Source: a virus
Taxonomy: Duplodnaviria; Caudoviricetes
Virus record (IMG/VR): IMGVR_UViG_3300029928_000005
Span: 1 to 64,000 of that record
Reading direction: 5' to 3' (one strand)
DNA: 64,000 nucleotides
This document shows, in pieces, positions 795-63,600 of this stretch (positions within the stretch are counted from its first letter, which is position 1; each line of letters starts with the position of its first letter). The notes below the pieces were generated by a model. That model was not told the DNA's origin. It did no database searches and worked only from the letters and a program-made list of their open reading frames with translations. Both the position numbers and the translations under genes were made by a program.

Positions 795-1365
795 TGCTAC
801 TTCTACGGGGGGTCTTCCTGAACTCCCTTTAGAAGATTATGGTGCATTAGATGATTCCGGAGCTATAGTATATAAATCTATGAATAATATTCTTGATGAT
901 ATAAATGTTGAATCTAAAAAACGTCTTATTATTAAGAATATTGTTCTAGATTTAGAATCTCAAATCGGTGATATTGTTTTTAATGATGGTAAAGCTCTTA
1001 TTCCTTTTATAGGAACTATAAATAAGCCATATAAAGCTATAGTTGCTCGTAAATATGCTAAAGAGTTTTCTGAAGCTAGAAAACGAATGACTAAAGAAGA
1101 ATATGCTAATTATGTTCGCGATATAATGAAGAAAGAGAAAAAAGCTATAGATGAACAAAATGCTAGAGCTGCTAGATTTGCTGAATTTAGAAGTAAACGA
1201 TTTAGAGTATATACTAAACTATTTGATAGACATGGTGAAGAATATGCTAATTTATGGCTTTTCTTTAAGGGTTATGGTGATATAGTACACTTTGACCTGG
1301 ATAGAGAAGCCGAATATCAACAATTATATGCAGAAATTACAGATAGAGAAACTGATAACAGTTGA
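775..1365 (+). CDS. Hypothetical protein, possibly HU/IHF-like DNA-binding
   Basis: Likely start ATG775 (MRKTPIDATSTGG). Segment DGKALIPFIGTI weakly recalls the HU/IHF beta-arm, and the C-terminus is basic and helical. Confidence 0.6.
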   Translation: MRKTPIDATSTGGLPELPLEDYGALDDSGAIVYKSMNNILDDINVESKKRLIIKNIVLDLESQIGDIVFNDGKALIPFIGTINKPYKAIVARKYAKEFSEARKRMTKEEYANYVRDIMKKEKKAIDEQNARAARFAEFRSKRFRVYTKLFDRHGEEYANLWLFFKGYGDIVHFDLDREAEYQQLYAEITDRETDNS

Positions 1366-1936
1366 TGATACAGGACTTCCTAAAGCTCCAAGTCTAACAC
1401 AACTTCTTGATAAAGATGTTAAGATGCTTTATGTTAGAGATAACACTAAAGATAAAATTAATTATCTTAAAGAAGTCGGTGTTATTTATTATCTAGCTGA
1501 CCCTAATAGTCCTCCTAAACAACAAGGACTTAGCGATAAAGAATGTATTAAACAAGCTATTGAAAACTTTGATTTACCAAAGAATTATGAACCTGATGTG
1601 CTTGTTTATAGAATTGCTAAAAGATACCACGACCAATGTATTACTGAGGCTGGTATTATTTTAGAAAACATTCTTAAAGCTATTCATAATGCTAACTTAG
1701 CTGTCAATCTTTTAAATGAAGCTCTTAATGAAAAATTAACTGCTGGAATTAGTAAAGAAGATGCTATGGAAATTATGGATATTATGGATAGACTTGCTAA
1801 GAAATCTGTTGAGATTCCTAATTTAGTTAAAGGACTTAATGAAGCTAGAGAAAATCTAATTTATGAACGTGAACAAACTACAGCTCGTGGAGGTGTAGAA
1901 ATTACTAGTTCTATGAATGCAGATGAAGATGAATGA
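1328..1936 (+). CDS. Conserved crAss-like protein upstream of the nuclease/terminase (possible terminase small subunit)
   Basis: Likely start ATG1328. Helical protein ending ...ARGG... in the usual Crassvirales position. Function inferred from synteny only. Confidence 0.55.
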   Translation: MQKLQIEKLITVDDTGLPKAPSLTQLLDKDVKMLYVRDNTKDKINYLKEVGVIYYLADPNSPPKQQGLSDKECIKQAIENFDLPKNYEPDVLVYRIAKRYHDQCITEAGIILENILKAIHNANLAVNLLNEALNEKLTAGISKEDAMEIMDIMDRLAKKSVEIPNLVKGLNEARENLIYEREQTTARGGVEITSSMNADEDE

Positions 1937-2118
1937 AAATGTTTAAAATAATATTTGAAAATAAAGATGTACGTATGATGGAAGAAACAGATTATCTTGA
2001 TAAGAAAACATATTATGTTGATATGTATTTTCAAGATGATGATGTTTGGCGTACAATTAAAAGTGGTAGTTTTTATTATTGTTATGATTTGTATAAACTT
2101 TTAATAACTAGTTGGTAA
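1933..2118 (+). CDS. Small hypothetical protein
   Basis: ATGA overlap with the upstream stop; ends 1 nt before the next ATG. Confidence 0.55.
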   Translation: MKMFKIIFENKDVRMMEETDYLDKKTYYVDMYFQDDDVWRTIKSGSFYYCYDLYKLLITSW

Positions 2119-2119
2119 T

Positions 2120-3124
2120 ATGCTTAAACTTGCAGATAAAAGATATGATAAAGTAAAACTTATTTTCCATAATGATGGACATCGTTATATCGATAATCTA
2201 GGAAATGATTATATTAGTACTACTACAATTCTTCATAGATATAAGATTCCTTTCGATAAAGCTAAATGGCTTCGTATTAAATCTAGAGAACTTGGTATTA
2301 GTGAAACTGAATTAGCTAAACAATGGTCTACTATTACAAAAGAAGCCTGTGAACGTGGTAGTAATACACATGATGGTTTAGAACAAGGTATAAAAGGTGC
2401 TAGTAAATTTGCTAATGCTATTCAATATCTTGATGCTAAACCCGATGGTGAAATGTTTACTATTGCTGATTTAGTTAGTATTGACCTTAATGCAAAAGAA
2501 CTTTCAGTTAAAGATTTTATTGAACTTACAGAAAATCGTTATCCTGAAATATATAATGTATTAGGTTGGTATACTGCTAGAGGTTATCATATTTATGCTG
2601 AGATTGGTGCTTTTCTTATCGATTATCTTGTAAGTGGTACTATTGATGTTCTTCTATTACGTGATGATTGTCATGTCATAGGAGATTGGAAAACTAATAG
2701 AGGCGGTCTTCAATTTGAAGCTGGTTATTATAAAAAAGATAAATCAGTTAAACCCACTCAACTTACTGCTGAATGGGTTCGTAAAGATGAAAGACTTCTT
2801 CCTCCTGTTAGTCATTTACCTGCTTGTAATGGTAGTTTGTATAATCTTCAAATTAGTATGTATGCTTATATGGTAGAAACTATTCTTGGATTACCTAATA
2901 GAGGTTGTTGGTTATGTCATATTGATTCTGATTTTGAACTTAATCAATATGGACAACCTAGACGTTTTCCTGATGGTTTATATCATATTAAAGAAAATCC
3001 TAAAGAACGTACTACTTTTCATAAGATGAAATATCTTAAAAAAGAAATTGAAGCTATACTTGCCAATCGTGCTATTGAGATTAAGAATATTGGTTTTAAA
3101 CAACAATATGGATTAGATTTATGA
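2120..3124 (+). CDS. PD-(D/E)XK superfamily nuclease
   Basis: Motifs H-x-Y, RGSNTH, E...SGTIDVLL...IGDWKT and YNLQISMY. Conserved Crassvirales position upstream of the terminase. Confidence 0.85.
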   Translation: MLKLADKRYDKVKLIFHNDGHRYIDNLGNDYISTTTILHRYKIPFDKAKWLRIKSRELGISETELAKQWSTITKEACERGSNTHDGLEQGIKGASKFANAIQYLDAKPDGEMFTIADLVSIDLNAKELSVKDFIELTENRYPEIYNVLGWYTARGYHIYAEIGAFLIDYLVSGTIDVLLLRDDCHVIGDWKTNRGGLQFEAGYYKKDKSVKPTQLTAEWVRKDERLLPPVSHLPACNGSLYNLQISMYAYMVETILGLPNRGCWLCHIDSDFELNQYGQPRRFPDGLYHIKENPKERTTFHKMKYLKKEIEAILANRAIEIKNIGFKQQYGLDL

Positions 3125-3444
3125 AAGAAACTGTTATTCCATTTATAATTGGAACTATTCTTGGTATTTGTATTTCAGCTTGGGTCAGTTCCCCCGTAGA
3201 AGGAGAGACTAAGCCAATAGTCATTGAAAGATATGTTCCTATTGAAGGTAATGATATTGTTTATCAAGTGAATAATACTAAACATGTTATTGATAGTCTG
3301 ACGGCTCGATGTGATTCTCTTACGGGGGAACTTCAAGTTGCTACATATAAACTTGAAAGAATTAGATATTATAATGATGTTGCTAAGAAAGGTAATAATC
3401 TAAAATTTTTACGTTCATGGATTAATCGTGTTTTAAATGAATGA
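3121..3444 (+). CDS. Membrane-anchored hypothetical protein
   Basis: N-terminal hydrophobic helix, short coiled coil, ATGA overlap with the upstream gene. Confidence 0.65.
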   Translation: MKETVIPFIIGTILGICISAWVSSPVEGETKPIVIERYVPIEGNDIVYQVNNTKHVIDSLTARCDSLTGELQVATYKLERIRYYNDVAKKGNNLKFLRSWINRVLNE

Positions 3445-4094: not shown

Positions 4095-4098
4095 AATC

Positions 4099-4407
4099 AT
4101 GAAGAAGATATTAATAGTAGTTCTGTGTATATTTATCATAGGTGTAACTATTTATAATTGTGTATGTGTTTTTAGATTAAGTCAGAGTAGTTTGGGTTTT
4201 GAATTGGTTGATACTACTATTAATACTCTTCGGATTGATTCCATTGAAATTGTAATCAGTCAAAGAGATAGTATTATTTATAATATTAAATATGCTGCAA
4301 ATGAAGAAAGTAAACAAGCTGCTCTTGATAGTGTCGATGATGCTGTTAGGAGGTTCATTGAGTTGGTCTCGGATACATCCTCCTACGGGGGGTCTAGCAC
4401 AAGATAG
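4099..4407 (+). CDS. Putative inner-membrane spanin-like lysis protein
   Basis: Likely start ATG4099 (MKKILIVVLCIFIIG). N-terminal TM then a helical region; follows the endolysin and overlaps the next gene. Confidence 0.5.
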   Translation: MKKILIVVLCIFIIGVTIYNCVCVFRLSQSSLGFELVDTTINTLRIDSIEIVISQRDSIIYNIKYAANEESKQAALDSVDDAVRRFIELVSDTSSYGGSSTR

Positions 4408-4699: not shown

Positions 4700-4702
4700 A
4701 GT

Positions 4703-6946
4703 ATGGATAAAGAATATCCTTTTCTTACTTTTTTAAAAGAAGATAAATCTAGATATAAAACAGCAAGTGAAGCTGGATATATAGATAAAGACAATATGTT
4801 TCTTATAGGAGATTCTGGAGGTTTTCTTATGAATATTCGTCCAGGATGGAAATTTGTTAATACTCATTTACTTACTGAAATTGCTGATTATTATAGAAAA
4901 CATAAAGAATATTGTCCTTTTAAAATAGATAGTCTTCCACATAGACAATTTAGAAAGAAAGAACAATATAGACGTAAACATGGTTTTGAAGCTCCGTGTT
5001 TAATGGATGACAAAGGAACTATTCATAATGTACGAATAACCGGTAATCATTATAATTTTCTTAATTATACTCGTATTGAACAGCTCGATGAATCAAGTAT
5101 TCAACGAGGCAAAGTTAATACAGGTAAAAAACATTATGATTTTCCTAAGTTCCTTGATGCTCAGTTTTGGTTTTTTCATGTACTTGAATTTGCAGAGAAT
5201 AATGGTTTTCATGTAATTATTGACAAGACTCGTCGTGGTGGTTTTTCATATATTAATGCAAGTACTGCTGCTAATAGAGTTAATTTATATCCAAGAAAAG
5301 TTGTTATCAATGTTGCTATTGATAAAAAATATCTTATTCAACGTGGTGGTTTAACTAACTTTGCTATTAATGATTTAAAATTTTATGAAGAAAAAACTCC
5401 TTTTAAACGTGGAATTTATAGTACAGTTAATACAGACTTTCGTCTTGGTTATAAGTTACCAAACGGGATTGAAGCCGATAATAGTTGGTCTAGTGCTCTT
5501 CTTAGTGTATCTGCTTTCAATGACCCCGATTGTGCTATTGGTAAAGATGCTGTTGAAGTTAATGTAGAAGAGTTATCTACTATGAATAACTTCGACCCAT
5601 TTATGGAAGTAACAGAACCTGCAATGAGAACTGGTGCTTACACAACAGGTATTCTTAAATGTTGGGGTACTGCTACTTCTGGTGATATGTCTACATTTGA
5701 AAATAACTTTTATAATCCTAAAGCATATCATTTTATGCCTTTTGAAAATGTTTGGGATACTGATATGCGTAATGAAATATGTGGTTATTTTAAACCATAT
5801 TGTTGGGGACTTCAAGGTGAGATTGATGGTCAGTATGGGGTAGACAAAGATGGTAATTCTAATATAGAAATTAGTCTTAAGATTGCAGCTAAAGAACGTA
5901 TTCATAAGAAAGAAACTTCTAAGACTTATGCTGAATATATAAATTTTCTTGGTCAATACGCTTTATTTCCTGCTGAATCATTTAGTAGTGCTACTGAAAA
6001 TATTTTTAGTAGTGAAGAATTAACTGCTTGGGAAACTAGACTTAGACTTGAACCTGACTTTAGATTTTATATTGATGGACAATTAGAAAGAATTAATGAT
6101 ATTGTTAGTTTTAAATCTAATGTTCGTCTAGCTAAAGAAGGCAAAAAAGTTTATGATTATATACAAGGAGTTCCCCGTAGAGGAAATGAAGACCCACATG
6201 GTTGTGTTCGTATTTGGTTTATGCCAGAATATGAAGAGTATTTTGATAATGAAACAAATCGAATGACTAAAGGAATACCTAAAGGTAAATATAGTTTAAG
6301 CTATGACCCTGTAGGTGTTGATAAAGAAAAGAAAGAAATTACTGATAGACATTCTCATAATAGTATTGCTGTATGGGAAAATTCTTCTGAACGTAATGGT
6401 TTTAAACAAAAGTTAGTTGCTTGTTATTATGGTCGTCCAGATAAACTTGAAGAAGCTGATGAAATATTTCTTAATTTAGCTATCTTCTATGGGGCAGTTG
6501 GCACAGCTGGAGTTGAAACTAATAGAGGTGAAACTGTTAGTAATTTTCGTAAATGGGGATATATTAAATATCTTGAACATGAACCTCTATTTGTTTGGGA
6601 CCCTACAATTAAAGGTAAAGTTAGTACTACTTATGGTTATAATGTTGGAGGTGCTGACAAAAAGTTAAATGCTCTACGATTAGTTAAAGAGATGCTTTAT
6701 GAAGAAGTTGGTAAAAAAGAAGATGGAAGTCCTAAATATGCTTTTGAGTTTATTCTTGATTATCAAACTATTCTTGAACTTAAAAAGTGGAATGCTGAAG
6801 GTAACTTCGATAGAGTTTCTCAACTTATTATTAGAGCTATTCAATGGAAAGCTATGCAAATTAAAGCTAGTTATGAATTAAGAAATAGAGTTAAAGTTAC
6901 AGAAGAAAATGACCAAAGTTCATTTTGGAATCGCGAATGGTTTTAA
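4703..6946 (+). CDS. terL: Terminase large subunit
   Basis: Walker A-type IDKTRRGGFSY, Walker B-like VNVEE, WGTA coupling motif, RNase H-like SYDPVG and NFDRV. Directly before the portal. No intron or intein evident. Confidence 0.93.
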   Translation: MDKEYPFLTFLKEDKSRYKTASEAGYIDKDNMFLIGDSGGFLMNIRPGWKFVNTHLLTEIADYYRKHKEYCPFKIDSLPHRQFRKKEQYRRKHGFEAPCLMDDKGTIHNVRITGNHYNFLNYTRIEQLDESSIQRGKVNTGKKHYDFPKFLDAQFWFFHVLEFAENNGFHVIIDKTRRGGFSYINASTAANRVNLYPRKVVINVAIDKKYLIQRGGLTNFAINDLKFYEEKTPFKRGIYSTVNTDFRLGYKLPNGIEADNSWSSALLSVSAFNDPDCAIGKDAVEVNVEELSTMNNFDPFMEVTEPAMRTGAYTTGILKCWGTATSGDMSTFENNFYNPKAYHFMPFENVWDTDMRNEICGYFKPYCWGLQGEIDGQYGVDKDGNSNIEISLKIAAKERIHKKETSKTYAEYINFLGQYALFPAESFSSATENIFSSEELTAWETRLRLEPDFRFYIDGQLERINDIVSFKSNVRLAKEGKKVYDYIQGVPRRGNEDPHGCVRIWFMPEYEEYFDNETNRMTKGIPKGKYSLSYDPVGVDKEKKEITDRHSHNSIAVWENSSERNGFKQKLVACYYGRPDKLEEADEIFLNLAIFYGAVGTAGVETNRGETVSNFRKWGYIKYLEHEPLFVWDPTIKGKVSTTYGYNVGGADKKLNALRLVKEMLYEEVGKKEDGSPKYAFEFILDYQTILELKKWNAEGNFDRVSQLIIRAIQWKAMQIKASYELRNRVKVTEENDQSSFWNREWF

Positions 6947-6962
6947 TTAAACAAATATAGTT

Positions 6963-9422: not shown

Positions 9423-9455
9423 TATACTTCTTTTAATCATTGACTTTATACTTTT

Positions 9456-9493: not shown

Positions 9494-9707
9494 ATTGCTC
9501 GTTCGATAAATCAATGACCTCGTATTTGCCACTTCTTTTGACTTTAGAGACACTTTTGCATTTAGTCGATAGATTGTATTACTACTACCAAGATAACTCC
9601 CCGTAGAGGAAAGAATGTGCCAAATATGACCTATTAATATTGCTGGAAGTACTTGGAATAAACGTAAAATCTTCTTAATGGTAAAGCTGATGCTGAAAAT
9701 TATACTA

Positions 9708-9769: not shown

Positions 9770-11113
9770 ATGGGTACTCCAGTAGTAAATTTAGATTTTG
9801 GTTATAATGGTAGTAAATCAAGCGGTGCGCCTACTGCTACTACCGAACCTGTACAAAACTTAGATACAGGTAAGACTAGTTCTGAGGAAACAACTCCTAT
9901 TAATGGTGGTACGACTCCTCCTCCAGAGCTTACAGAACCGAGTAAAGAACCTGATAAGGAACTTGATAAAGGTAATGATGGTAAAGGTGATAAAGATGAT
10001 AAAAAGAAGCCAGCTCAAACTTCTCCTTCTACGGGGGGTATAGATGTATCTACATTAGAAGCTGGTACTACTATTGAAACTCCTGATGGTAATTTGTTAG
10101 TTGATGCTCAAGGTAATCTTGTTGATAAAGATGGTAATATTTTTAAAACTAAAGATGAAGCTAATGAGTATCTTAATCAGTTTGAAACTGATGGTGAAGG
10201 TAATGAAAATACAGAACCAGAACTTAGTATCAAAACTATTCAAGAAACTATCGGTGTTGATGTAGTAGATGACAAAGGTAAGAAAGTTAAGTTTGATAAT
10301 AGTCCTGAAGGTATTAAGTCTTATGTTAATAGTGTAATGGAGATTCGTGAAAACGAAATTGCAGAAGCTGCTATTAATAGACTTTATCAAGATGTACCTG
10401 TTCTTCCTGATATTATTAATTATTATATTGCTAACGGTGGTTCTCTTGAAGGTTATAATGAAATTCCAGATAGAACTCAAATTGTAGTTGATGATAATAA
10501 TGTTAATCAGCAGAAGGCTATTATTAAACAAGCTCATAAAGAATTTGGTCGTAGAGGTGATGTAAACAAATATATTAAATATCTTGAAGATAGTGGACAA
10601 TTACTTGAAACAGCTAAAGATGAACTTGCTGCGCTTCAGCAAGCCGATAAAGAAGAGCATGAGAGACTTAGACAAGAAGCCGAAGCTCGTATTAAAGCGG
10701 ATGAAGAAGCAAGTGAGAAATATTGGACTGGAGTAAAGAAAGTTATTGATGGTAAGAAAATTGCTGGTTATCAAATTCCAGATAATATTATCATTAGTAG
10801 AGACGGAAAAAAGATTAGTGCTACTCCACAAGATTTCTTTAATTATATTTATCAAGTTGATGATAATGGTAAAAGCCATTATGTTTATGACTTGGAAAAA
10901 CAAACTCCTGAAGCTAGACGTGATGACCAGATACTTCGTGCGTATTTGACATTTGTTGGAGGTAATTATGCAAGCCTTGTAGATATGGCTATTAAAGAAG
11001 AAAAAGTTAGAACTCTTAGAATGAAGAGTAAACAAGCTACAACAAAAGGCGGTATCAAAGTTACTTCTCCTGCTGGTACTACAAAGTCTAAAGACATTGA
11101 CTTTGGATATTAA
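9770..11113 (+). CDS. Scaffold-like / capsid assembly protein
   Basis: Start ATG9770. Acidic low-complexity N-terminus and helical C-terminus; lies between portal and MCP as in other Crassvirales. Confidence 0.7.
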   Translation: MGTPVVNLDFGYNGSKSSGAPTATTEPVQNLDTGKTSSEETTPINGGTTPPPELTEPSKEPDKELDKGNDGKGDKDDKKKPAQTSPSTGGIDVSTLEAGTTIETPDGNLLVDAQGNLVDKDGNIFKTKDEANEYLNQFETDGEGNENTEPELSIKTIQETIGVDVVDDKGKKVKFDNSPEGIKSYVNSVMEIRENEIAEAAINRLYQDVPVLPDIINYYIANGGSLEGYNEIPDRTQIVVDDNNVNQQKAIIKQAHKEFGRRGDVNKYIKYLEDSGQLLETAKDELAALQQADKEEHERLRQEAEARIKADEEASEKYWTGVKKVIDGKKIAGYQIPDNIIISRDGKKISATPQDFFNYIYQVDDNGKSHYVYDLEKQTPEARRDDQILRAYLTFVGGNYASLVDMAIKEEKVRTLRMKSKQATTKGGIKVTSPAGTTKSKDIDFGY

Positions 11114-12621: not shown

Positions 12622-13749
12622 ATGGAAGGTACATCAAAATTTGTAGTTAATCCTAATGCTGGAGCTGGTGATGGTAAAACCAATACATCTCCTACGGGGG
12701 GTCAGCCCGAAGTAGAAACTCCTAATAAAGTTGAACAGGAAAATTTAGAAGAACCATATATAGAAAAACGAACTATTACTATTAATGTAATTAAAAATCC
12801 ATCTTTATTTAGGCGTGCTAATGATAAATACATGCCTCGTAAAGTTGAATATATTGGTAGTAGTATTCGTTCTTCTTCAGTTCTTACGAGTAATAAACAA
12901 GAAATTGAATATTACTTTCCTAGTCTTCTTGGTGTTCCTGCTAATGCTGATACTTTTATTACCCGTGTTAAACAATATCTTAATAACTTCCACATAGAAG
13001 TTAATGAACTTGGTAAAACTCTTGATATAAGTTTTCGTTGGAATACTAAAAGAGATTATTATAGCTTTAAAGCTAAAGAAGATAGAATTGAGGAAACTTA
13101 TAAAGCAGTTCGTAGAGATAATTTGGTCGAACTTAAAAAAGCTCTTGAAGTTAAGATTGATGACCTTAATGCTCTTGAATCAACAAGATTTAGATATGGA
13201 AATCCTATTAATGTAGAAGATTATATTAAATATCGTCATTGTTTGCTCTACAAGGATGTCTGTAAAGACCCTATCTTTATTAATAGTGATGTTAGTTATA
13301 GATTTTACTTCAAGGATGATGCTCGTGAACTTGAACAAGCTCGTAAGCGTAGAATTGAAGCTAATAATGCTAAACGAAACTATCTGTTAGCTCTTGCTGA
13401 TGACGAAGTGTTTAGAGCCGTTTATATTCAATATTGCGTTGCTGTTGGTCAGCCTGTTCTTACCTCTTTATTTAAAGAAAAGTTTGAGCAAGAAATGGAA
13501 CTTGATAAATATAGTTCTGATGAACCAGCTAAGTTTAATAAGATGTTTAATGATAAAGACTTAAAGATTAAAGCATTTATCGAAACCCTTATTGCTCGTG
13601 GTGAATTTGTTAGAACTAACGATAATCAAAACATTTCTACTCCTGCTGGCGATTTCATTGGCGCAAATATGAAAGAAGCAGTTCTTTGGTATAAGAATCC
13701 TGAAAATGCTAAAGCTGTAGATGCTTATCGCAATAAATTAAAATATTGA
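12622..13749 (+). CDS. Conserved crAss-like protein downstream of MCP
   Basis: PINVEDYIKYRHCL and IGANMKEAV motifs; synteny. Confidence 0.7.
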   Translation: MEGTSKFVVNPNAGAGDGKTNTSPTGGQPEVETPNKVEQENLEEPYIEKRTITINVIKNPSLFRRANDKYMPRKVEYIGSSIRSSSVLTSNKQEIEYYFPSLLGVPANADTFITRVKQYLNNFHIEVNELGKTLDISFRWNTKRDYYSFKAKEDRIEETYKAVRRDNLVELKKALEVKIDDLNALESTRFRYGNPINVEDYIKYRHCLLYKDVCKDPIFINSDVSYRFYFKDDARELEQARKRRIEANNAKRNYLLALADDEVFRAVYIQYCVAVGQPVLTSLFKEKFEQEMELDKYSSDEPAKFNKMFNDKDLKIKAFIETLIARGEFVRTNDNQNISTPAGDFIGANMKEAVLWYKNPENAKAVDAYRNKLKY

Positions 13750-14446: not shown

Positions 14447-15343
14447 ATGAGACAATTTGTTCTTGCCGGCGATGTAGCTTATGGTGGAGCTTCTGTTGAT
14501 GCAGTTGCTGCTGGAGCCGTCGCTATGTTTTATTTAAACAAAGATGGTGTAGATACTTTAGTTTCTACAGGTAAAGAGAATTTTGGTCGTGCTAACTTAG
14601 TTGTTGGTCGTGGTATGGAAAAAGGTGGTCCAATTGTTCTTCCTATTTTCCGTTATCACATGAGTTATGTTCGTAGTGATTATAAAGCTGGAACTAAGTT
14701 TCATGCAGAAGTTACTATTCCAACTGATAGAATGATTCCTTTCTGCAATTATTCAATTATTGTAGTTAAGAATGGTATTCAGTTTAACGAACGTAATAAA
14801 TGGACTGCTACTATCTTTGGTGGTGCTAATCCTAATGCAACTAATATTGCTAATGCTCTTGCTAAGCATTTACAGAATAACAAAATTGGTCATGGTTTGA
14901 ATGTTTCTATTGCTGGAACGACTATTAGTTTTGACAGCGATACTTATCGTGATTATACTATTTTGTTGGCTGATGCTTTGACAGGAGTTGAAGTAACTAT
15001 GGTTCATGCTGAGAAACCTATCAATGATGCTCGTATGATTCAAGATTATCATGCTAAAGCATGGGCTGATATGGGATTCCAAAATACAGAAGTTGAACCT
15101 AATATTCTTATGTATCCTAAACTTCATCTTGGTGGTTGGACTGATATTGACCCTGACGATAAAGGTTTCACAGTCTTTACTATTCGTTTTGCTGAACCAA
15201 GAGAAATGAAGACTAGAGATGAAGTTGTTCATCAGATTATTCAAGTTGCATTCCCTACAGGGGCTGCTGGTATTGATACCTTTGAAACAGTTCTTAAAGG
15301 AATGACTGATGAAGGTGGTTTGAGTGGACAGAACTTGTGTTAA
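14447..15343 (+). CDS. Structural protein, likely auxiliary capsid protein
   Basis: Beta-rich 298 aa with high-expression codon bias, in the position of the auxiliary capsid gene. Confidence 0.55.
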   Translation: MRQFVLAGDVAYGGASVDAVAAGAVAMFYLNKDGVDTLVSTGKENFGRANLVVGRGMEKGGPIVLPIFRYHMSYVRSDYKAGTKFHAEVTIPTDRMIPFCNYSIIVVKNGIQFNERNKWTATIFGGANPNATNIANALAKHLQNNKIGHGLNVSIAGTTISFDSDTYRDYTILLADALTGVEVTMVHAEKPINDARMIQDYHAKAWADMGFQNTEVEPNILMYPKLHLGGWTDIDPDDKGFTVFTIRFAEPREMKTRDEVVHQIIQVAFPTGAAGIDTFETVLKGMTDEGGLSGQNLC

Positions 15344-15365: not shown

Positions 15366-15392
15366 TAACTAAGTATTATTTGTAATATTAAC

Positions 15393-15454
15393 AAAGGTAG
15401 ATGTGCTCTTGATGTAACTCCTCGTAGGAGTATGAATAGAGCACATCTACCTTT
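15393..15454. repeat. Long inverted repeat (17-bp perfect arms) with nested hairpin
   Basis: AAAGGTAGATGTGCTCT (15393-15409) / AGAGCACATCTACCTTT (15438-15454), enclosing ACTCCT-CGT-AGGAGT (15417-15431). Confidence 0.9.
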
Positions 15455-15470
15455 TGTTGTATATGCTGGT

Positions 15471-18157: not shown

Positions 18158-18158
18158 T

Positions 18159-29970: not shown

Positions 29971-30276
29971 ATGAACAAATTAAATCTTATTTGTAATAAT
30001 CTTTTAGCTAAAGGAGTTCTTGATGCTCAACTTAGTGCATTACTTATTGAGTTTAATAAAGAATATACAACTGCTTTGGCTAATGCTTCTAAAGTTCCTG
30101 CTCTTGAACAACGTATTGAGGAACTTGAAGCTTTGACTATGATTCTTCGTAGAAGTTCCCCTGTAGAGGAACAATCATCTAAACCTACTCAACCTGATAA
30201 AGAAAACAATGACGAACAAGATAAAGCTATTGCTGATAACACCGATAAAGCTACTGCTGGTGAAACTGAAGTATAA
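29971..30276 (+). CDS. Hypothetical protein
   Basis: 101-aa ORF with a short coiled coil and acidic tail. Confidence 0.65.
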   Translation: MNKLNLICNNLLAKGVLDAQLSALLIEFNKEYTTALANASKVPALEQRIEELEALTMILRRSSPVEEQSSKPTQPDKENNDEQDKAIADNTDKATAGETEV

Positions 30277-35175: not shown

Positions 35176-35254
35176 GCTCGGCTTCGCCTCGCGACTCCCC
35201 GTAGAGGAAGTGATGTATCCCCAATATATTATTAATTAAAATAATTTTGTTATT

Positions 35255-53900: not shown

Positions 53901-54533
53901 GATACTGCTGTAGAAGAATTTATTGCTTATACTTTAACAAATAGAAGTTTTATTGATTTACTCAATAATATAGAAGATGAAGTTGTTGAAGGTAAAAAGA
54001 CTCTTTGGGATAAATTTATTGATTTTATTGCTAAACTTTTCTTTGGAAATGATTATAAAATAAATGAAAGAAGTCTTCTTAATAGACAAATTAGATTACT
54101 TTCTAATGGAATTTCAAATAATAAAAAAGTAACTAATGTTAGTACCCCTATACAAGGAGAGCTGAATTTTGATAATGCTCCTTCTACGGGGAATGTTAAT
54201 CGAGATATACAAAATAATCAAGAAGCAACTATAGGTGAACCTTCAGAAGTTAAACCTGAATCTGTTCAAGAACAATATACTGAAACTCCTGAATATACTG
54301 CTAAAGAATATTCTGATTTACAAAGTTTAGCAGATAGTTTATCTGATGATTTTGATTTAACTGAATTTAATGATGAAGATAATTTTAATGATTTAGATAA
54401 TATGGCTTCTGAACTTATATTTGAAGATATTCAAGTAACCAACTTATCGACCGTTGAACAGAGTTTACGACCTGACCAACGAACCGAATTTGGTACTTTA
54501 GCTTCTGCTGGAGCGATTAAATTACATTGCTAA
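47952..54533 (+). CDS. Giant virion protein (RNAP-associated) with TM-like region, coiled coils and C-terminal zincin motif
   Basis: 2193 aa. EATEGLEESWQY and AFWGWIGG region; LLHERVH at 53676 with downstream EEFIAY at 53913. Confidence 0.75.
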   Translation: MSLKDAFNKMNQEPANAAGSNYINPFERYIQNNNLDNTPTYSSEKAIRNVDLSGQNVIHYNPLQYNKYDIPVTPKSNIDELNRQRAINQSFGEQLWRFGVQTVGDQIVLGTLQAFTDMGDALLGNQGGDYSNPLSTAIEEAREAIREANEIYRVNPGESFDLTDSGWWLNGATSIVSSLALMAPGLAVTKGVGLLAKAINATKGVTKLLEGYNTVAKGAKLGALTVNSARSAQIIGQGSEVLGMAAVSRIAENYQEARQTYTNSIDQVMNGLANMSNEERDEFDKNNPEFANKSDREIAELIAGESADDVFWKDMYLIAFDAIQLKALNKVWKGFQGKGPLSKAVRDEERKFAAQISGKTYEPLTGFKGFVDDMKLMINPKIVLTEATEGLEESWQYTTQKRAEENLLNKLNPKQQVRGYLDIITDEESLENAFWGWIGGITFQGLGGATMRGINAYQDKRYKKKHPEDAAGYNLRRQEGVMDSYRTEEIKSRISEIGRYHELRKLVDDGYDVYNYRTDENNNIITDQEGNVVYEPLTDEYQGELIKQDLENDMLVNIALNAYDRGNYNALKETVKDTNFNEQDKSFADRAISKMDETVDMYEKELGMAIANSFSENIARQIALNNVKAKLKIRNHEKLATDFGVHIEDLMRINNYSGDDEKEIRTKLQELELAYYKEQLEEINYQIEDYKRRYNESTTDRISRSTFLKQIRQLNRIKNIIYNKKPELKQLENRRNEIDNQITSLQEELTNAAKQLRNAIDVRDSNLEKTLSDGMTKTQETTDNLNKELIDIDISSKKSYDDIYDELSNINKEIADAKNNELTFTSRALINGGEILNTKNEITQEAEFINNTLRAFRDKELGDADKTINDIISNKDLNLEEIADELNGRQTNLPDEVKTRLKKAIEKYNLYSYNNAPILDKISIKLRQEARKREEAPEAVKNDEPVTEVPVTPIQSEASEETVSSPVEGETQSTSSTSTGSQTQQSVITTNEGEVIVSEELDPDISPEDKANLEAITIQSQGDYEVGKSIRNDIRKALSNKNIDWFARDYNTIFNEIKQQLLNKYNKEDVDREMKDFDMQLYESISNNGISFEDAVQNINYFRKAIEESNSSLIFESAAVANNNNLANEQLRQLYINLIERYVEKNNIVTNSQRLYVNLDELIKYLIRNGIVDRTTLRNIYNNMSLFFRSRYNNGDTIYKLKYVPFRLSERKLDKLFNEVEAGDNIGQDIFKRAIDPTADKRINVINKELYLEAGTPIYAVRHSSGFGIDFYVEQDGKMVQIGYNSIGKRSANGNGYNITARGINYNILNENGVYTSDLDDIFTTLFPYNENYENIPLSKDDGKALNAIFDLGYEMVNLKVNKKFKDGWLINYKEQIEDILKCKIINDFLSKHFSNFATNKEGAVSSFIQLIYPIIEFSRVSGLNSDLNRNVVILYKDFIIRQISNYDFTNQLNKQLQGMPNTSKNPAVVTLNVTRSQRGDPIEEGELKPINADSIVGFNLDKSDNSEGEVHLARIIDKGQIKLDNGRIHNIPGFNRNLGSPLLLALSNGSNYPDYIPIYASTINELKDDDFGKDLLAEINNIFINFKNGVIDFDTVYDRLKELIGPNKLIQDMALYKTKDDKIIISYYKNVGTNKTADITIYKRDNAGNISTGISFTNSDGNVTSGKQLSDKTINDFISRLFGIARIASNYDYFENVTIDTPYVKKNNKEMIITLNNHEYKARNYLEFISKYKTGKIQLDKKVINGKETNFNPLTTNQGANINIQVDYNEQSGNQVDNRVQEEENKNINDFLNKARQSGNNISINKLLPKRNTKKLLELFAPNYVGTFFNSNGSIRTIGSVGLLPTNFIIRAFDENGDFIEYDANNPNKEVDASYYENGTYEITTKLLTRVNPNDESSQEEFIRTLLHERVHGLIASKAGKVNIEEIRDGINYIIDKLYEFVDNGDKLSQYALANNLNVDILRNNLNKLRDYINNLKRNGKNDTAVEEFIAYTLTNRSFIDLLNNIEDEVVEGKKTLWDKFIDFIAKLFFGNDYKINERSLLNRQIRLLSNGISNNKKVTNVSTPIQGELNFDNAPSTGNVNRDIQNNQEATIGEPSEVKPESVQEQYTETPEYTAKEYSDLQSLADSLSDDFDLTEFNDEDNFNDLDNMASELIFEDIQVTNLSTVEQSLRPDQRTEFGTLASAGAIKLHC

Positions 54534-54625: not shown

Positions 54626-57600
54626 ATGGCTGATTGTAACTATAACTTTTCAAGTGATAAAAGAATTAATTCTATAATTCAATCCATAGCTGGAAATGAC
54701 ATTCAGTATGGTAATGATTTGCTTAATATAATTAATAGTAAAGGATTTGCTAGTATATTAAGTAAATCAGATGAAGAAGTTAAACAAAGTCTTATTGATT
54801 ATTATAATAAGAAAATATTTAATCCGTCTAAAAGTACTAAACTTAGTAAAAGAAGTGGATTATTTGGTTTTGCTAATATGATAGTAGCTAATGATGCTAA
54901 AGAGTATTTTGCTTCTTATGCAAATAAACTTAATTATGTTATGCTACTTCATAATATGAATACTGCTAATAATGTAGAATTTATTATAGCTAAATTTAGA
55001 AAAGATATTAGCGAAGAACTTATTAAACGTGTTGATGAAAAATATCTTACAGATGATGAATTAACTCAATGGAATGAAGCTAAAAATGCAGATGAAACTG
55101 CTGGTAATAAATCTATAGTAAATAGATTTAAATTTGCTATTGTTTATTTTAATAATCATCGTAATGATTTAAATATTCCTAATGCTGAAAGAAATGCTAA
55201 TTATGCAGATTTAGTTAAAGCATCTAGAACAAATGATTTTTATGTATATGCTAGAAATCATTCTAAAATTAACGATTTATTTAAAGATGTAAATGTTGAA
55301 AGTATTAATCTTGGAGAAGAAAATACTGATGAATTTAGTGATGATTTTGATGCTACTGAAGAATTAAGTGGAACTGCTCAATGGAATTTTGGAGATGATA
55401 TTAAAAATAGTAGTCAATTAATTAGTGCAGTTGTTAAACAAAAAATTAATGGATTACCTAGATTAAGTAGTCCTATTCCTACAGAAGTAGATGGTAAAAA
55501 AATATATTTAGAAGATAGAAGTAATACTATTGGAACAACTCAAACTTTAGATTATAAAGAAGTTTCTGCCGAATTATTTGATATATGTGCTAATACAAAT
55601 GCTGGTACTAATATTGATAATTTTATGATAGAACTTCTCAAACTTGCTACTACTAAAAAAGATTTTTATGGTCTTAGAATATTATATGATGAAGCTGGTG
55701 GTTCACAACCTAATGATTTAGCTTATGCTTTATTTAAAGATTTTTGTAAACCTGTTAAAGATAATGTTGAAATAGATATTGAAACTGACGGTAGCATCAA
55801 ATATAGACAAAGTAATGTAAAGAATAATAGTAAACGTAAGATGTATTATGATTTAATTAACGATATTAAATATACTGCATCTAATAGTAATTTTACTGTT
55901 ATTCCTGAAATGATTAATCATATTAATTCACTATTAGATAAAGCTGTTTTTGTTGGTACTGATAATATAAAACCGAAAGATGTTAGAGAAAAAGAAACTA
56001 CTAATATTATTAATCAAGCTATTTCTGAAGTACAAATACTTTATAAAACAATATTTCCTAGTATTGATATAAAAGCTATTGATAGCTTTGTTAATAAAAA
56101 TATTTTACAAAATGATAGACGTAATGCTATAAAACAACTTGTTAATATAATTTATGATGTAAAAAATATAGATAATAATAAACAATTTTTATATAATATT
56201 ATAGCTTCTGCTTATTCTAATTATCTTAGTCAAAAACAACATAATGCTCAAGTTTATTCTGCTTATAAAAAAGAACTTGATGCTTATAATGAAATAGCTG
56301 GACAAGATGGAGGTATAGCTAAACGTCCTGAAGTTCCTAGTATGATTATTGATGATTCTTATTATAGAAGTAATTCTATGTGGAGAATTATTGATGATAT
56401 TACTAATTTGCTTTCTCCTTATAGTAAAATTAATATAGAACTTAATGGACGTACTATAGATGGTAAAAATCAATCTGATGTTGTTTATAATAATTGGCTT
56501 TATAATGTAATTAATGCTACACATAATAAAGGTACTCTCACTGCTATACTTCAAGATAAAATGAGAAGTGATGAATATAAATATAGTAATCTTCTTGTTT
56601 CTGGAAATAATCATTATGGTTTATTTACTTATAATCCTGCTACTAAACAATATGAAATAAGTAATGTTGGTACACAATTACTTAGAACATTTTATATGAA
56701 TGGTATAAGTAATAGACAAAATGGAACTAATGCTAAATATACTAATATGTCTGATAGCGATTTCTTTTATTTTGGTTATTTAGCATTTATTACTTCGCTT
56801 GATGATTATTATGCTTTAAATACTGGAGATAAAACTAATATTCCTAAAGCTAGTTATTTAATGAGAATTGCTGCTGATAGTCCTAAAAATATGATTCTTG
56901 AAGCTCCTAAATATTCATTAAAACAATTATATGGTATTAATGATAATACTTTAACAGCTTATGTAAATAATGAATTATCTAAACTTAGATTTGGATTTGG
57001 TAATGTTTCTGTTTTTACAGATAAAATGAATAATGGTAAAACTTATAATACTGAAATTGAATTTGCTAAAGCTATATTATCCAGAATTAATTCTAAAGAA
57101 GAATATGAAGCTAATATTAAAGAATGGGTTTCTAGTACTAAACATGGTAGTAAAATTGCCGATAATTATAAAATAGGAGATAAAGTATATTGGTCTATTA
57201 ATTATAAAGCTGGTGGACAAATAACTAAAGCTGTATTTAGTGCTACTATTTCTGATAGAAATATTAAAGGACAAAGTACTACTATTAAAGCTAAAGATTT
57301 TAATTTTGAAGGTTTTCTTATTCCTGGCAATACAGATATGACTAATCCCCCCGTAGGAGATGAAATAGTATCCAAACTTTCTAATGAATTTAAAGAACAA
57401 TATACTCAATCTGTTCTTACTAATAAACAATATGATACTAATAGTTCTATATTTAATCAACTTAGAAATTTAGTTTTTAGTGAAATTCAAATGGCTCTTC
57501 GTTCTAAATATGCTATGTTTGGTGAAAATGGAACTACTCTTTTATTAAATCCTAAACAATTATATAACGATGCTCATATTAAAAATGGTAAATATGAAGA

Positions 57601-60600
57601 AAATGGTAAACTTGTTGGTAATCTTTTTAAATTTAATCGTTTATATGATATTGATTTAGGTAATGGAAAATATTTTAATATTGGTGATTTTGAATATGAA
57701 GGTCGTAAACTAAGTGAGTGGATTAATATATCTTCTACGGGGGGTCTTGCACAATCTAATATTGATTATTCTATTGATGGAAAAAATATTAATTTTAATT
57801 TAGTTGAAAAACAAAAAGAAGCTCTTGACGCTGCTATAACTGAATGGATTAATTTATTTATTGCTAATGAAGTAGAAATTATATATAATGAATTTAATAA
57901 GACTTTTGAAAATCTAGATAAAACTAGACTTACAGAGTATATGCTTAATTATACTCTTATGCTTAATAATATGGATGATTTATTTGAAGGTAATTCTGCT
58001 TTTTATAAAGACGCTCAAACATTTACTAAACGAGCTAAAGAATATGTAGCTGGCGGAACTGCTTATGGTGGACGCGATATGTATAATTTTAGTTCAACTA
58101 ATGAAATTAAAGATAAAATTATTGGAACTGATGGTAAACAATTAAGTTATCAAAAATCTAATGGACAAATAGTTCCTATTGTTACTAGAAAATCTTATAT
58201 AGGAGTTACTATTAAAAATATTGTTAGACCTGTAGATACAGCTGATGATATTTATAAAGAACTTACTAATAAAGAAACTGGTATTAGTAAAGAAAGAGCT
58301 GATGAATTAATTGAAAATTTTAAAGGAGACGTAAAAGTTGATGATGCTCAATCTTATATAACTATTTATGAAGCTATTCGTCGTATTAAGTTATTGGGTG
58401 AGTATCCTAAATATGCTAATCTTATTACTCAATTACTTAATGGTGCTGAACTTACTGATGTAGACCCAAAACTTCTTAATAGTTTTATTCAAGTTGCTAA
58501 AAATTATTATTTTGACCATAAATATGATGATATATTTAATATTCATGTTCCTAGACAAATTAAGAATGCAGAATTTATTCTTATTCCTCAATTTGTTAAA
58601 GGTACACAACTTGAAGTTGTATTACAATTTATGATTGATAATGATATTGACCAATTAAATACTCAAGAAACTAGTAAAGCTGCTAACGCTAATATTATTA
58701 ATATTTGGGATGAAAATTATAATCTTAAAGATTTAAAAGGAAAAGAAGTTCTTGATGAACTTAATAGTCCTGGAGTTAAATCTCAATATAGTTATAATTT
58801 TCTTTATAGACAACAAGAAGTTCCTCAGCACATGAAAGATGCTAAAAATAAAGCTGGTATTCAAATTATGAAAAAGATTCTTGATAATCTTAATGAAGCT
58901 GGAAATAAACTTAAAGGTGCTTCTGAAAAATTTGTAAATAATTATATAGCTAATATAGAAGAAGATTTTGAAAATCTTTGTAATGAACTTGATATTAAAT
59001 TTGATGAGAATTATAATCTTATAAGTAGAAGTGGTAATCCTATTAATTTTGCTAAATTTAATCAATTAGGTCTTGAACAAATGCAAAGACTTGGTGTTGA
59101 TAGTAATACTTTTGATTATTTTACTAGTGTGGTAGCTAATGATGATGCAACTGTAAATACTGTTATGCCAGAATTTATGAATATTATTGGCAATAAACTT
59201 GAAAATATTTGTATGGCTATATTTACTAATAATATTGCTAGACAAACTCTTCCAGGTTGGCACGCTGCCCAAGTTACTAGTCCTGGATTTAAAAAACTTA
59301 AAGTTAATACTAAAGAAGATGGGACTCAAGATGAACAAATAGTTAAATGGGCTAAAGATTTAAAATATCATTCTAATGGAGAAAATGTTATACAAGTAAT
59401 GCTTCCTCGTTGGGCAGCTAATCTTTATGGTATTTCCGATGAAGCTATTATTAATAGTGAAATATCGACTATGATTGGCTATCGTATTCCTACAGAAGGT
59501 AAACAATCTGTTGGTATTTTAAAAGTTGTTGGTATTTTACCTGACGCTTATGGTTCAACTATCATTGTTCCTGATGGATGGATTGCACAAACTGGTTCAG
59601 ATTTTGACGTTGATAGTATTTATGGTATAGTTTATGAGCATTATATTAATAAGAAAAATAAATCTATTGTTAAAATAAAACGTAATGAAAATACAGATGA
59701 AGATAATACTTGGCTTAGATATACTAATTATGTAATTAGGAACGCTGAATCTAAACTTAAAAGAGAAAAACAATTAGCTTTTAATGATGAACAAAGAGCT
59801 GATATTAATTCTCGTATTTCTGCAATGTATGATGCTACATATAAAAAGAATAGTGATGAATATAATAATTTATTAGCTACTAATGCTGAACAAGAAAGTA
59901 AAAGATATAAAGAACTTCCTGATAAAATTAGAGAAATTGTAAATAGTATTCTTCAAAAGAAAACTATTCTTTATAATGAAAGACTTAAACTTTTAATAGA
60001 AACTCTTACTAAAATAAATAAAAGTAATAATCGTATTCTTAATGAATTTATTGACATAAACCAACAACGTCTTCAAATAATGAAAGATAGTAAATTTGGT
60101 CTTGAATATGCTTTCTCTAATATTAATTCTAAAGAACTATTTAATCTTTTAAGAAAAGAAGATTATCATAAAAAGATTAAAGAAATAGCTGAAATTGCTG
60201 GTCTTAAAACATTTAATGAATTTAAAAAACTTAATATTGATAGACAACAAAGTAGAGCTGCTAGAAATAATGCTATTCTTGAAGCTGCTATAGAAATTCT
60301 TCAGCATCCTAAAAATCTTGAAGAAATGATGGGCACTAGTCATTTTGAAGATATAAAAACTGCAAAAAGAATTATTGATGATTATGTAGGAGAAACTAAA
60401 GTACATAGAAGTGTATATAGTCTTAAAGACCAAATATTTTTTAGACGTAATAGTATGGGAGGTGCTATTCTTAAAGCCTTTAGTGTTAATAGAGATACAA
60501 TTAATAGTATTAATAATGTTGTTAAAACTGAACTAGCTCAACCTATATTGGTTCGATATGCTTCTCCTACGGGGGGTCTGACAGTTAATACGTCAAAAAT

Positions 60601-63600
60601 AGATAATAGTTATATTATTAAAGATGGTTTTGTTGTTCATAAAGGTTTAGGACATAGTAAAAATAATAGAAATGTTGTTGGACAACTTATTACCAGTTAT
60701 AGTTCACAAACTACTGCTCATATTCTTGATGCTGTAAAAGAAGGTGCTATTCCTAATGAGAATCCATATACATTTGGAACTTATAAAACTCTTCTTGATG
60801 TTGGTATGGACCATTATCATGCTATGCTTTGGCTTAGACAACCAGCTATAAGTTATATTGTTGATGGTTATTATCAAACTCAATCTGTATTTAATAGAAG
60901 TCTAGCTAATCCTATTAATATTGCTATTAGAGAAATAGCTAAAAATATTGTATTTGAAGACGGAAGTTATGCTGGAGAAAAAGGTCAAATAATTAATAAT
61001 AGTACAGCTATTAGTATAATAGAAGAAAATATTCTTAACAAATTAGGAATTAATCTTCAAGAACAACTTGATGATATTAAAATTGATTTTAATGATATAA
61101 TTGCTACTTATAATAGACCCCCCGTAGAAAGAGGAAATGAATATTATGTTAGACTTCTTAAACAAGTATATACTTTTAAAGCTATTAGAGATATAAGTAA
61201 TAATATAGAAGCTCATGGTCGTATTCTTACTGCTGATAAATATGGTGCTACTGAAAATTTCTTTAAGAATAGAAAAAAGTTTTATGATATTTATGACTTA
61301 TATAATAATGGAAAAGCTAGTAAATTATTAGTTGGAGAAACTACTTTATTAGAAGCTGTTATTCCTGGTTCAAGTTCTATAGCAATTAATAATGATGAAG
61401 GAGTAGGTCGTATTATAGAAGATATTAATGAAGGTATTAGAAGATTTATGAAAGCTGGAGAAAATAAACGTAGTAGTTATCCTACTCTTAATACTTTCTT
61501 TAGAAATTGTCTTGTACCTAGTTATCTTATAGCTAGTGAAAAATTTAGTACTGAAAAACCTGTATTTGTTAATGCTATTAATAACTTAGGATTTATACTT
61601 AATAATTCTCTTGATGAAGAAACATATAATCAATTTAAAAAATATGTTCTTACTTATATGTATAGAGAAACAGCTCATAATTTAGCTCACGATATAATTG
61701 TTGATAATGAAGGTAATATTAAAGCTATTGATAAAGCTACTCCATTAGATAGATTATATGGTACTAATTATGATATTGATAATGAATTTAATTGTGAAAA
61801 TATTAATAATCCTACAGAAGAAGAATATAATAAATTTCATAATCTTAACGTCGCTAATAAAGTTCAATTTATTAAATCTAATATAACTGTTAGTGATGAC
61901 AATATATTTAATTATTTAACTACTAATTTACATAATGCTTATGAAATAGCTAATAGTGGATTAGCTAAACAAACTATTAATTTTGATGATGAAGGACAAA
62001 ATATAGACCAAATATATAGATTGTTTAATGAAGCTATGGATAATAATAATAGACTTATTAAAGATACTATGATTGATATTATTAAATATGCTTTTTATGT
62101 AGAAGGATTTAATTTTGGTCGTAATAATGCTTCTAAATGTATTAGTAATAAAGCATTATATAGTACTTTTGAAGAAGGTGGTATTAATATTATTAAAGAT
62201 ATTAAATCTGGTATAGATATAGTTAATGAAGCTACATTATATGATGCTAATCTTTATGAAGATTTTGTTCGTGGTCATAGTAAGTCTAAAATAATTTCAT
62301 CTCATAATATTAAATTTATAAATAAAGTTTCCGAAATAGCTAATAATTATATTGGAAATGATATTTATATGTTTGATTTAAATGATAAAATTCAATATGG
62401 TAGAGCTATAGATTTAGGAATTATTAGAGAACTTAGTGAAGGATATAGTAAAACTAATTATATAGTATTTTCTAATAGAGGTAATGAAACTCTTTATAAA
62501 TGTGTATATAAAGATGGAGATATTGTATATTTACATCCTCTTAATCTTCTTGAAAATTATGAATATGGAGAAAGTGTTAATTTAAAAAATATTAAACATC
62601 TTCAACCAGAAGATTATCAAAGTCTTATTAATTTACATTATGAAGATATAGCTGCTTATAAAACTCAAGCAAATAATCTTTATAATGAATACCTTAAAAA
62701 TAAGAAAACATCTGCTACAACACAAGTTGTTGGAGTTCCTAATAATGAATATTTTATAAGTGAACAACTTGAAAATAATGAAAGAGGTATTGATGGTATT
62801 AATAATTTTATAAATAGAATTAATACTCATTTTTCTAAACCTAATGTTAGTCTAGGATATTTTTGGATTATTAACCCTATTTTAAGAAGTAATTTTTCTA
62901 AACTTAATACTATAAGTTATCAACGTATTCAAGACAACAATGGAGAAGAACATTTATATACTATAAAACGAGTACAAAGAGATATTAGTAAACTTAAATA
63001 TCTTGAAAAGGATAGTAGTACTGAAGAACTTGATAAAATTTTAAAAGACAATAATATTACTTTTAGTGATGATATTTATCTTGTAGAAAAAATTAACGAA
63101 AGACCTGAAGAACCTACTCGTATGGATAGTAGCATTAGTTTTGCTGATGATAGAATTGACATTAGTGATTTAGGTCGAGTTAATATGTCTATGTATCAAA
63201 GCATGAAAATTCAAGCTAGACGTAGTAATGATAATCCTGCTGCTAGAACTTTAAGAAGACTTAGAAGACAAAGAATTAATCTTAATTCTGTTCAATCTAT
63301 TGAAGAAAATCGTGAACTTGGAATTATTATTACTGCTGATTATTATGAAGAACAAGCTAATAATATTACTAGAGCTTTAAATAAATTTATGGGAGATGAA
63401 TCTATTAATAATGATTCTGTAATTCAAGCTCTTATTGATGAAGATGAAAATATGACATTTGATGGTCCTATTAAAACTAGATTTGTTGAACTTGTTCTTA
63501 AAGCTATTACATTTGGTGATAATATTCAAATGATTTATAATGTAAGTACTGATGATTTATCTAAAAATACTAAAAAAGCTATAGATAAAATTAAAAATTC

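Follow-up and report, generated by a model that had tools for sequence, protein, structure and literature searches.

The genome considered here belongs to a tailed phage (IMG/VR record IMGVR_UViG_3300029928_000005) and comprises 98,116 bp, of which bases 1-64,000 form the window, i.e. the whole stretch of DNA covered by a preliminary description; the feature in question is a short word repeated through its genes on both strands. Capsid, portal and terminase of this phage are of the crassvirus type, with a major capsid protein (MCP) 72-77% and a large terminase subunit (TerL) 60-68% identical to those of Crudevirinae, and the gene order matches that of p-crAssphage. As judged from the grouping of capsid, terminase, portal and primase together with synteny, rather than from a tree, the phage is an Intestiviridae crassvirus. 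Its genes are organized in a late arm on the plus strand (1-68 kb) and a replication arm on the minus strand (68-98 kb), the latter coding for PolB, a RecD/Pif1-like helicase, an SNF2-like ATPase, RecT, a single-stranded DNA-binding protein (SSB), ligase and primase. The genes of the primase, SNF2, RecT and RecD-like helicase (genome 78788-89482, minus strand) lie outside the window.

The preliminary description had counted 23 exact cores, CTACGGGG, 13 on the plus and 10 on the minus strand, and our recount, with cores spanning from 803 to 61120, was identical. At a window GC content of 29.6%, an order-2 Markov model gives a chance expectation of 0.05 copies, in line with the earlier estimate of well below one. 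Scanning of the remaining genome brought the number to 35 exact cores in the full 98,116 bp and to about 48 sites by a weight matrix (whole-genome consensus about MTYCYYCTACGGGGRGTC), the reversed control of which returned 0 sites in the whole genome. Of the 11 degenerate copies proposed previously, the matrix accepts eight (3320, 15255, 15420, 17285, 17380, 27394, 30159 and 36178), while of the other three, 6487 is borderline, 825 departs from the core at two positions and 54146 is in doubt. The 3' flank varies more than the proposed GGGGRGTC implies.

Selection on the DNA and one even array per strand

The open reading frames (ORFs) of the genome hold 31 cores, two of which fall in doubtful short ORFs, as against 0.077 +/- 0.28 (maximum 2 in 300) after amino-acid-preserving synonymous shuffles, and the enrichment thus withstands a codon-preserving null. 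Within the window, 21 of the 23 exact copies lie inside credible genes, as previously stated; 9599- and 35197- are intergenic, the former overlapping only a doubtful 119-aa ORF. The peptides read from the sites in differing frames and strands (STGG/PTGG, LRG, SYGG, PVE/PVG and PRR) had all been assigned correctly, and the codons that the sites force are indeed rare in this genome (ACG 3.1%, GGG 2.9%, CCC 4.5% and CGG 0.6% of synonymous use).

Comparison of orthologs supports the earlier proposal that selection acts on the DNA and not on the protein. The site in the primase gene occupies the same loop in 17 of 18 Intestiviridae and is read there in two frames (LRG or LYG), 17 of 18 aligned genomes share a fixed antisense site in SNF2, and the sites in ligase, PolB and tail-ring genes are widely shared, each in the dialect of its own genome. 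Since fixed sites survive a change of frame, it is the DNA that is selected. The terminase site at 6173 is missing in a 91%-identical relative through synonymous changes only, with no gap, the gp73 site has had its orientation flipped in place among relatives, and other gains and losses are mostly substitutions and not insertions, a few of them in poorly aligned stretches. Cores are better conserved than their surroundings, differing at 1.7% of positions versus 6.4% in far flanks among p-crAssphage strains and at 2.0% versus 9.1% in the cr11_1 group. A role in mRNA is disfavored, as had also been argued, by the use of both strands irrespective of transcription direction; in the family alignment, coding sites are dispersed and comprise 202 sense versus 167 antisense of 369. 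No covariation indicative of compensatory pairing was found in four pairing registers (|z| at most 2.3), which suggests that the word is read as sequence and not as a hairpin; a hairpin/UNCG-tetraloop reading was dropped for this reason, and neither Rfam nor tRNA scans gave a match. What selection maintains is a polar DNA signal about 15-17 bases long.

The geometry of the sites is unusually regular on each strand. Same-strand gaps have a median of 5.9 kb, and gaps below 1 kb number 5 of 516 versus 73 for randomly placed sites and 50 after shuffling of the strands among the existing positions (15 of 759 versus 77 expected with 26 genomes). Opposite-strand neighbors within 500 bp are in excess (145 versus 81, in genomes that are related and hence non-independent), and opposite sites come as close as 27-45 bp within genes. 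In a blind screen for per-strand evenness of all 7-9-mers in this genome the word ranked first of 4,567, strand use being about equal in both gene arms with no skew along the replication direction. Each strand has an array independent of the other's, in which sites recur at intervals of about 6 kb, and the apparent alternation of strands results from the presence of these two separate even arrays. A divergent pair (98004-/98051+) marks the point at which the two gene arms of this genome diverge, and in p-crAssphage a divergent pair (95745-/95868+) is situated at the predicted origin (PMC10983915). The sites of the window are listed in Table 1.

Table 1. Copies of the word in the window, with one nuclease gene (window coordinates)
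Feature	Position	Strand	Context
Exact core, STGG	803..810	+	gp85 homologue (700-1365)
PD-(D/E)XK nuclease, gp83 homologue	2120..3124	+	candidate reader if the word acts like Chi
Exact core, SPVE	3192..3199	-	gp82 homologue; lost in 91%-identical relative L114
Variant core (TTAC)	3320..3327	+	gp82 homologue; divergent pair with 3192-
Exact core	4383..4390	+	gp79/gp78 overlap; position identical in 9 genomes
Exact core, PRRG	6173..6180	-	terminase large subunit; absent in L114, synonymous changes only
Exact core	9599..9606	-	between portal and gp75; intergenic or doubtful ORF
Exact core, STGG	10029..10036	+	linker of gp75 homologue
Exact core, PTGG	12692..12699	+	gp73 homologue; opposite orientation at same spot in 7 relatives
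Weak variant core CTACAGGG	15255..15262	+	gp71 homologue
Decayed copy	15420..15427	-	loop of intergenic terminator-like hairpin (15390-15460, long inverted repeat); intact in L114
Variant core	17285..17292	+	tail ORF 16775-18157; convergent pair with 17380-
Variant core (CTAT)	17380..17387	-	tail ORF 16775-18157
Exact core, LRGV	19140..19147	+	ORF 18147-19490
Exact core, LPVE	20956..20963	-	ORF 19502-22180
Exact core, STGD	21387..21394	+	ORF 19502-22180
Weak variant core	27394..27401	+	ORF 26235-29525
Variant core, SPVE	30159..30166	-	ORF 29971-30276
Exact core, STGS	32602..32609	+	ORF 32019-33491
Exact core, intergenic	35197..35204	-	small GC-rich GAA-triloop hairpin 3' of core (about 35176-35190)
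Variant core (CTAT)	36178..36185	+	tail ring/tubular protein gene
Exact core, FPVE	41297..41304	-	gp49 (muzzle/tail stabilization) homologue
Exact core, PTGG	42096..42103	+	ORF 41654-42592
Convergent pair 44567+/44605-, 38 bp apart	44567..44612		gp47 homologue
Divergent pair 50846-/50884+, 38 bp apart	50846..50891		gp45 (zincin/RNAP-associated) homologue
Exact core, STGN	54184..54191	+	gp45 homologue
Exact core, PPVG	57349..57356	-	giant RNA polymerase gene
Exact core, STGG	57735..57742	+	RNA polymerase gene
Exact core, PTGG	60567..60574	+	RNA polymerase gene
Exact core, PPVE	61120..61127	-	RNA polymerase gene

In 12 relatives a sense site lies about ten alignment columns from the equivalent of 36178+. 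Small GC-rich hairpins with GAA or GTA triloops follow intergenic copies on their 3' side (window 35176-35204 and genome 91505-91640), and triloop hairpins likewise follow copies in p-crAssphage at 6025, 28077/28176 and 95868; such hairpins recall the promoters of the N4 virion RNA polymerase or single-strand origins. The 8 letters of the core also form a hairpin loop in the KP34 'promoter', but that phage is unrelated and the match was taken as coincidence. Among the neighboring genes, that of PolB (genome 84722-88014, minus strand) is interrupted by a 250-aa GIY-YIG homing endonuclease ORF, the interruption being probably a group I intron.

The word across crassviruses

All 26 Intestiviridae genomes examined carry the word, with 19-48 sites each. 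The prototype p-crAssphage is among them, and 31 of its 32 sites match TCCTCYACGGGGRGT. A common core, YYYYTACRGGS, is accompanied by flanks specific to each lineage, the word being respelled genome-wide in each lineage's own dialect. An inverted-duplicated assembly (G010) was left out, as was a 172-kb contig of 66% GC (G012) with chance matches; the latter, an unrelated element, has about 40 copies of the near-palindromic TTTACGGCGTA on both strands. A 222-kb IMG/VR contig (G011) is an apparent chimera with an Intestiviridae genome in its first ~90 kb and contains a second repeated word, GGTGTGTCTCAC-like, in about 13 copies.

Crevaviridae have about 7-12 longer, mostly intergenic elements, most with a related core at the end. 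In G070-G072 and cr127_1 these elements measure 30-40 bp, are GC-rich and are often followed by a GNA-triloop hairpin, and cr127_1 has a perfect 32-bp inverted pair around about 130 bp of AT-rich DNA (28.7-28.9 kb). Words of 9 letters were revealed in two Steigviridae. In crAss001 (MH675552), 29 copies of CTTCTGGAG occur, 26 of them in ORFs versus 2.6 under the codon null, in several frames and on both strands; this word is the top of 5,205 in per-strand evenness, which over the whole record is significant on the minus strand (p 0.0006) and marginal on the plus strand (p 0.085). In DAC15 (MT074136), CTTCTGGTG is enriched and occurs 24 times, using both strands, with evenness that is not significant (p 0.27 and 0.065). 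A divergent pair is found near the genome end in both phages, and that of DAC15 recurs 97,652 bp apart, which suggests that it lies in an apparent terminal repeat. No array was detected in phi14:2, FpV4, cr6_1 and IAS, scanned as whole genomes, or in cr85_1 and cr108_1, of which 50-kb halves were scanned; the search would overlook shorter words. Two candidate words were discarded: that of IAS is uneven and reflects an Asp-Pro codon pair read antisense, and that of cr85_1 looks uneven by eye.

The genomes of the host order that were sampled show no enrichment: 41 Bacteroidales genomes gave 22 matches versus 29 for the reversed control, and 111 such genomes gave 6 matches to a 14-mer versus 2 for the control. 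Two host-genome matches sit in hairpin-like repeats. Full-text searches and term look-ups in the literature on crAssphage, crAss002 and Crassvirales found no description of the word, in agreement with the preliminary description. The feature is real, selected and family-wide.

Candidate readers of the word

The dialect follows the phage lineage and the word is not enriched in host-order genomes, which points to a reader encoded by the phage. Very probably, a phage-encoded protein reads the word in the course of a process that follows a single strand for a few kilobases. Tentatively, we propose the DnaG-type primase of the phage, alone or with SSB, as this reader, with the word serving as a long private template on single-stranded DNA. 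Such a primase would recognize the whole word rather than a triplet, and an Okazaki-type fragment would begin at each of the sites, spaced at ~6 kb, of the strand being displaced, be it plus or minus. Both strands would be needed as forks or recombination-started D-loops may travel either way, inverted pairs near genome ends would start two leading strands, and close same-strand duplicates, being useless, would decay and so even out the spacing.

Priming is favored on account of the universal primase, the precedent of T7, triplets resembling CTA, TTA and CTG, and inverted pairs at likely origins or ends. Primase is the sole replication gene universal in Crassvirales (PMC10136315). The T7 primase site, 5'-(G/T)2GTC-3' plus about 10 nt of 3' flank, is used at about 26 strong sites, chosen via these 10 nt, in 14 clusters 1-6 kb apart (PMC12839067), a range into which the per-strand median of 5.9 kb fits. 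Initiation triplets of DnaG include CTA, TTA and CTG (PMC2978363); CTA/TTA/CCA forms the center of the Intestiviridae word, and CTG that of the words of crAss001 and DAC15. In the phage studied here, the primase gene product has a PHROG DNA primase match (E 1.8e-76), and its structure model (predicted local distance difference test, pLDDT, 87) matches the Aquifex, T7, E. coli and S. aureus primases, so that the genome is predicted to code for a primase of the DnaG/T7 fold. The N-terminal domain of this protein (genome 78788-79969, minus strand) does not have the usual four zinc ligands, its insertions are absent from the crAss001 and cr6_1 primases, and the motif site in its gene corresponds to a low-confidence loop of the model (residues 276-279). 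No DnaB was detected in this genome or in any of the further Intestiviridae and Crevaviridae that were searched.

In its fullest form the proposal is possible but doubtful: in crassviruses, the 3-letter start signal of DnaG would have grown into a long password of their own, with a length of 9 letters in some Steigviridae, 15-17 in Intestiviridae and 30-40 in Crevaviridae, together with a hard-wired Okazaki map on both strands, a primase that starts only its own genome and co-evolves with its sites, and, throughout the crAssphage family, no DnaB. The idea that the array exists because DnaB was lost was dropped, since crAss001 has its own array together with a weak DnaB-like match.

Co-variation of protein sequences with the spelling was assessed by partial Mantel tests, windows and single residues, the codons of the sites being masked in the later test. 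In the masked test, primase ranked second of 32 core genes (r 0.24, nominal p 0.015); none of the leaders gp47, primase and SNF2 was significant after correction, and no one protein stands out as the reader. Separately, Trp71 of SSB (genome 80111-81148) tracks A at position -4 in 35 lineages (r 0.8), a signal that is weak after 19 features.

Several results weigh against the primase. Its corrected co-variation has a family-wise p of 0.5, with gp47 higher and SNF2 the same, and no single primase residue tracks the spelling. A site of 25-37 bits exceeds by far the length of the published DnaG and T7 sites compared. The triplet match, with pyrimidines 5' of the triplet, is weak: a triplet of this type arises at any pyrimidine-to-purine junction, and the reverse complement is built in the same way, so that the match does not discriminate. 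Moreover, the array-negative phi14:2, FpV4, cr6_1, IAS, cr85_1 and cr108_1 all carry primase, and the array of crAss001 is present despite its DnaB-like match. The orientation of the inverted pairs differs among genomes, some having them convergent and others divergent, and tests for a deamination sawtooth between sites gave at best a faint signal, with a z of about 2.5 in 2 of 6.

Of the roles listed in the preliminary description, primase sites and a Chi-like signal stay live candidates, the latter being in our view unlikely. The word would here be a phage-private Chi, a polar stop or switch for the RecD-like helicase gp14 and the nuclease gp83 with handover to RecT, which would curb loss at double-strand breaks and tell self from host DNA. 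Because a break has two ends, each strand would need its own even array, and the same per-strand evenness is predicted; the gp14, RecT and gp83 genes are present in Intestiviridae genomes, the absence of enrichment in the host order agrees with a private signal, and gp83 came third in the first co-variation test. This gp83 signal, however, faded with 26 genomes (r 0.17, p 0.09), gp83 is located in the late/structural arm, BLAST found no match to gp14, RecT or gp83 in crAss001 despite the array of that phage, and the terminal inverted pairs are left unexplained. Known Chi sites are also shorter (5-8 nt). Host Chi or FtsK-orienting polar sequences (KOPS) are not supported, given no enrichment in the Bacteroidales genomes sampled and no strand skew along replication.

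It is rather improbable that the word is where a phage translocase or helicase, namely SNF2-like gp17 or the SF1B helicase, loads with a set polarity to restart or remodel forks or strip proteins from duplex DNA in either direction. The polarity and per-strand spacing would suit such loading, SNF2 ranked first or third in co-variation tests, and its gene is present in nearly all motif-bearing genomes, but the site within the SNF2 gene had inflated its first signal, which was not significant once masked (family-wise p 0.52), and no case is known to us in which an enzyme of this kind loads sequence-specifically at 15-bp sites.

Programmed single-strand nick sites in virion DNA, such as those of T5, tf, phiKMV and Rembedalsseter, are likewise rather improbable. 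Those phages keep a 9-base word in coding sequence across 61 genomes, sharing the letters TAC, but the published word crowds one genome end with a coverage drop on one strand (10.1101/2024.10.22.619576), whereas both strands are equal and even here and opposite sites lie 27-45 bp apart within genes. Loose contig ends at sites are expected from the shared 20-base seed.

A promoter or loading site for the virion RNA polymerase, used in genome entry or for primers or R-loops, appears very improbable. The triloop hairpins after several intergenic copies are reminiscent of N4 promoters, and the circular permutation of the crAss002 genome (PMC8042965) would require entry signals to be scattered. Entry is one-directional, yet 167 of the 369 coding-region sites are antisense; the residual co-variation of the polymerase is negative, and phi14:2 has a working virion RNA polymerase and no array.

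The organizing or cargo array and the packaging or ejection pauses considered earlier are disfavored by per-strand evenness and equal orientations, and an orientation-blind array for a DNA-organizing, cargo or packaging protein, or for RepL-like operators, is highly improbable. The word is quasi-palindromic, and the genome has two RepL-like genes (71084-71659 and 97021-97803, minus strand), each with a divergent site pair and AT-rich DNA upstream, likewise in p-crAssphage. The evenness, however, holds per strand and not on pooled sites, which argues against orientation-blind scaffolding and one-way packaging or ejection, packaging itself being one-directional. The gene called IHF-like in p-crAssphage (window 33493-34170) is Pfam CrAss_Ring_2, i.e. 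tail ring protein 2, and was ruled out as a DNA-binding reader. RepL was found in 4 of 19 (BLAST) and 1 of 13 (Pfam) motif-bearing genomes, a search that strongly diverged copies could escape; with the gene absent from most such genomes and the sites dispersed, few pairs lying near RepL, operators or iterons of RepL were rejected, and this reading is largely refuted.

Finally, a selfish mini-element of the repetitive extragenic palindrome (REP) or miniature inverted-repeat transposable element (MITE) kind, or a site-specific recombinase target, tolerated in linkers, is scarcely credible: the mostly intergenic 30-40-bp Crevaviridae versions, some in perfect inverted pairs, and the two host matches in hairpin-like repeats would fit it, but gains and losses are mainly substitutions, conservation is 4-fold better in cores than in flanks, the family shares fixed positions with under-dispersed spacing, and four wastewater assemblies have no strand-changing joints.

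Significance and comparison with known systems

Crassviruses are the most abundant human-gut phages, and their replication mode has been stated as unknown (PMC10136315). A family-wide signal at fixed, even per-strand addresses offers a direct handle on it, and cultured members (crAss002, Rudgehvirus jaberico, crAss001 and DAC15) are available. Whichever protein reads them, the spellings and their cognate proteins constitute natural orthogonal protein-DNA pairs, and recoding or engineering of these phages must respect the sites. If priming is the true function, it would mean a predetermined Okazaki map and self-specific recognition by primase.

The word is similar to known polar DNA signals, most of which have a defining trait that it does not show. 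DNA uptake sequences (DUS/USS) and REP/REPIN elements have lineage dialects, accumulate in permissive linkers and form inverted pairs in intergenic hairpins, likenesses that the word shares; unlike them, it is phage-borne, occurs in 20-50 copies at fixed even positions and bears no insertion signature, and no uptake system or HUH transposase was noted. With the stoperators of mycobacteriophages and the C1 operators of P1, which number about 20-30 in a phage genome and measure 13-17 bp, the word has in common the copy number, length, asymmetry and probable phage origin of the reader, but those sites are co-oriented with transcription or placed at promoters and junctions, whereas the word stands in both orientations in the middle of genes and no universal repressor or RepL is present. 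Chi (RecBCD/AddAB) and KOPS/SRS (FtsK/SpoIIIE) are polar, G-rich, over-represented words in genes, read by a translocating enzyme; the word is likewise polar, G-rich, over-represented and written through genes, but twice as long, phage-private, not enriched in Bacteroidales and strand-equal rather than replichore-skewed. The nick motifs of T5, tf, phiKMV-like phages and Rembedalsseter similarly are lineage-wide words of unknown purpose, mostly in coding sequence (10.1101/2024.10.22.619576), with a concentration at one end and strand-specific breaks, in contrast to a word that is even on both strands. Like the priming sites of T7 and DnaG, the word is polar, has an extended flank and is scattered over a phage genome that codes for a DnaG-fold primase, at a few dozen sites on a scale of 1-6 kb, and it would be read on a single strand; a DnaG-type triplet occurs within it, in a match that does not discriminate. 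The T7 sites are clustered and need a fused helicase, whereas the word has 15-17 nearly fixed bases, is selected in coding DNA, is under-dispersed per strand and is respelled in each lineage.

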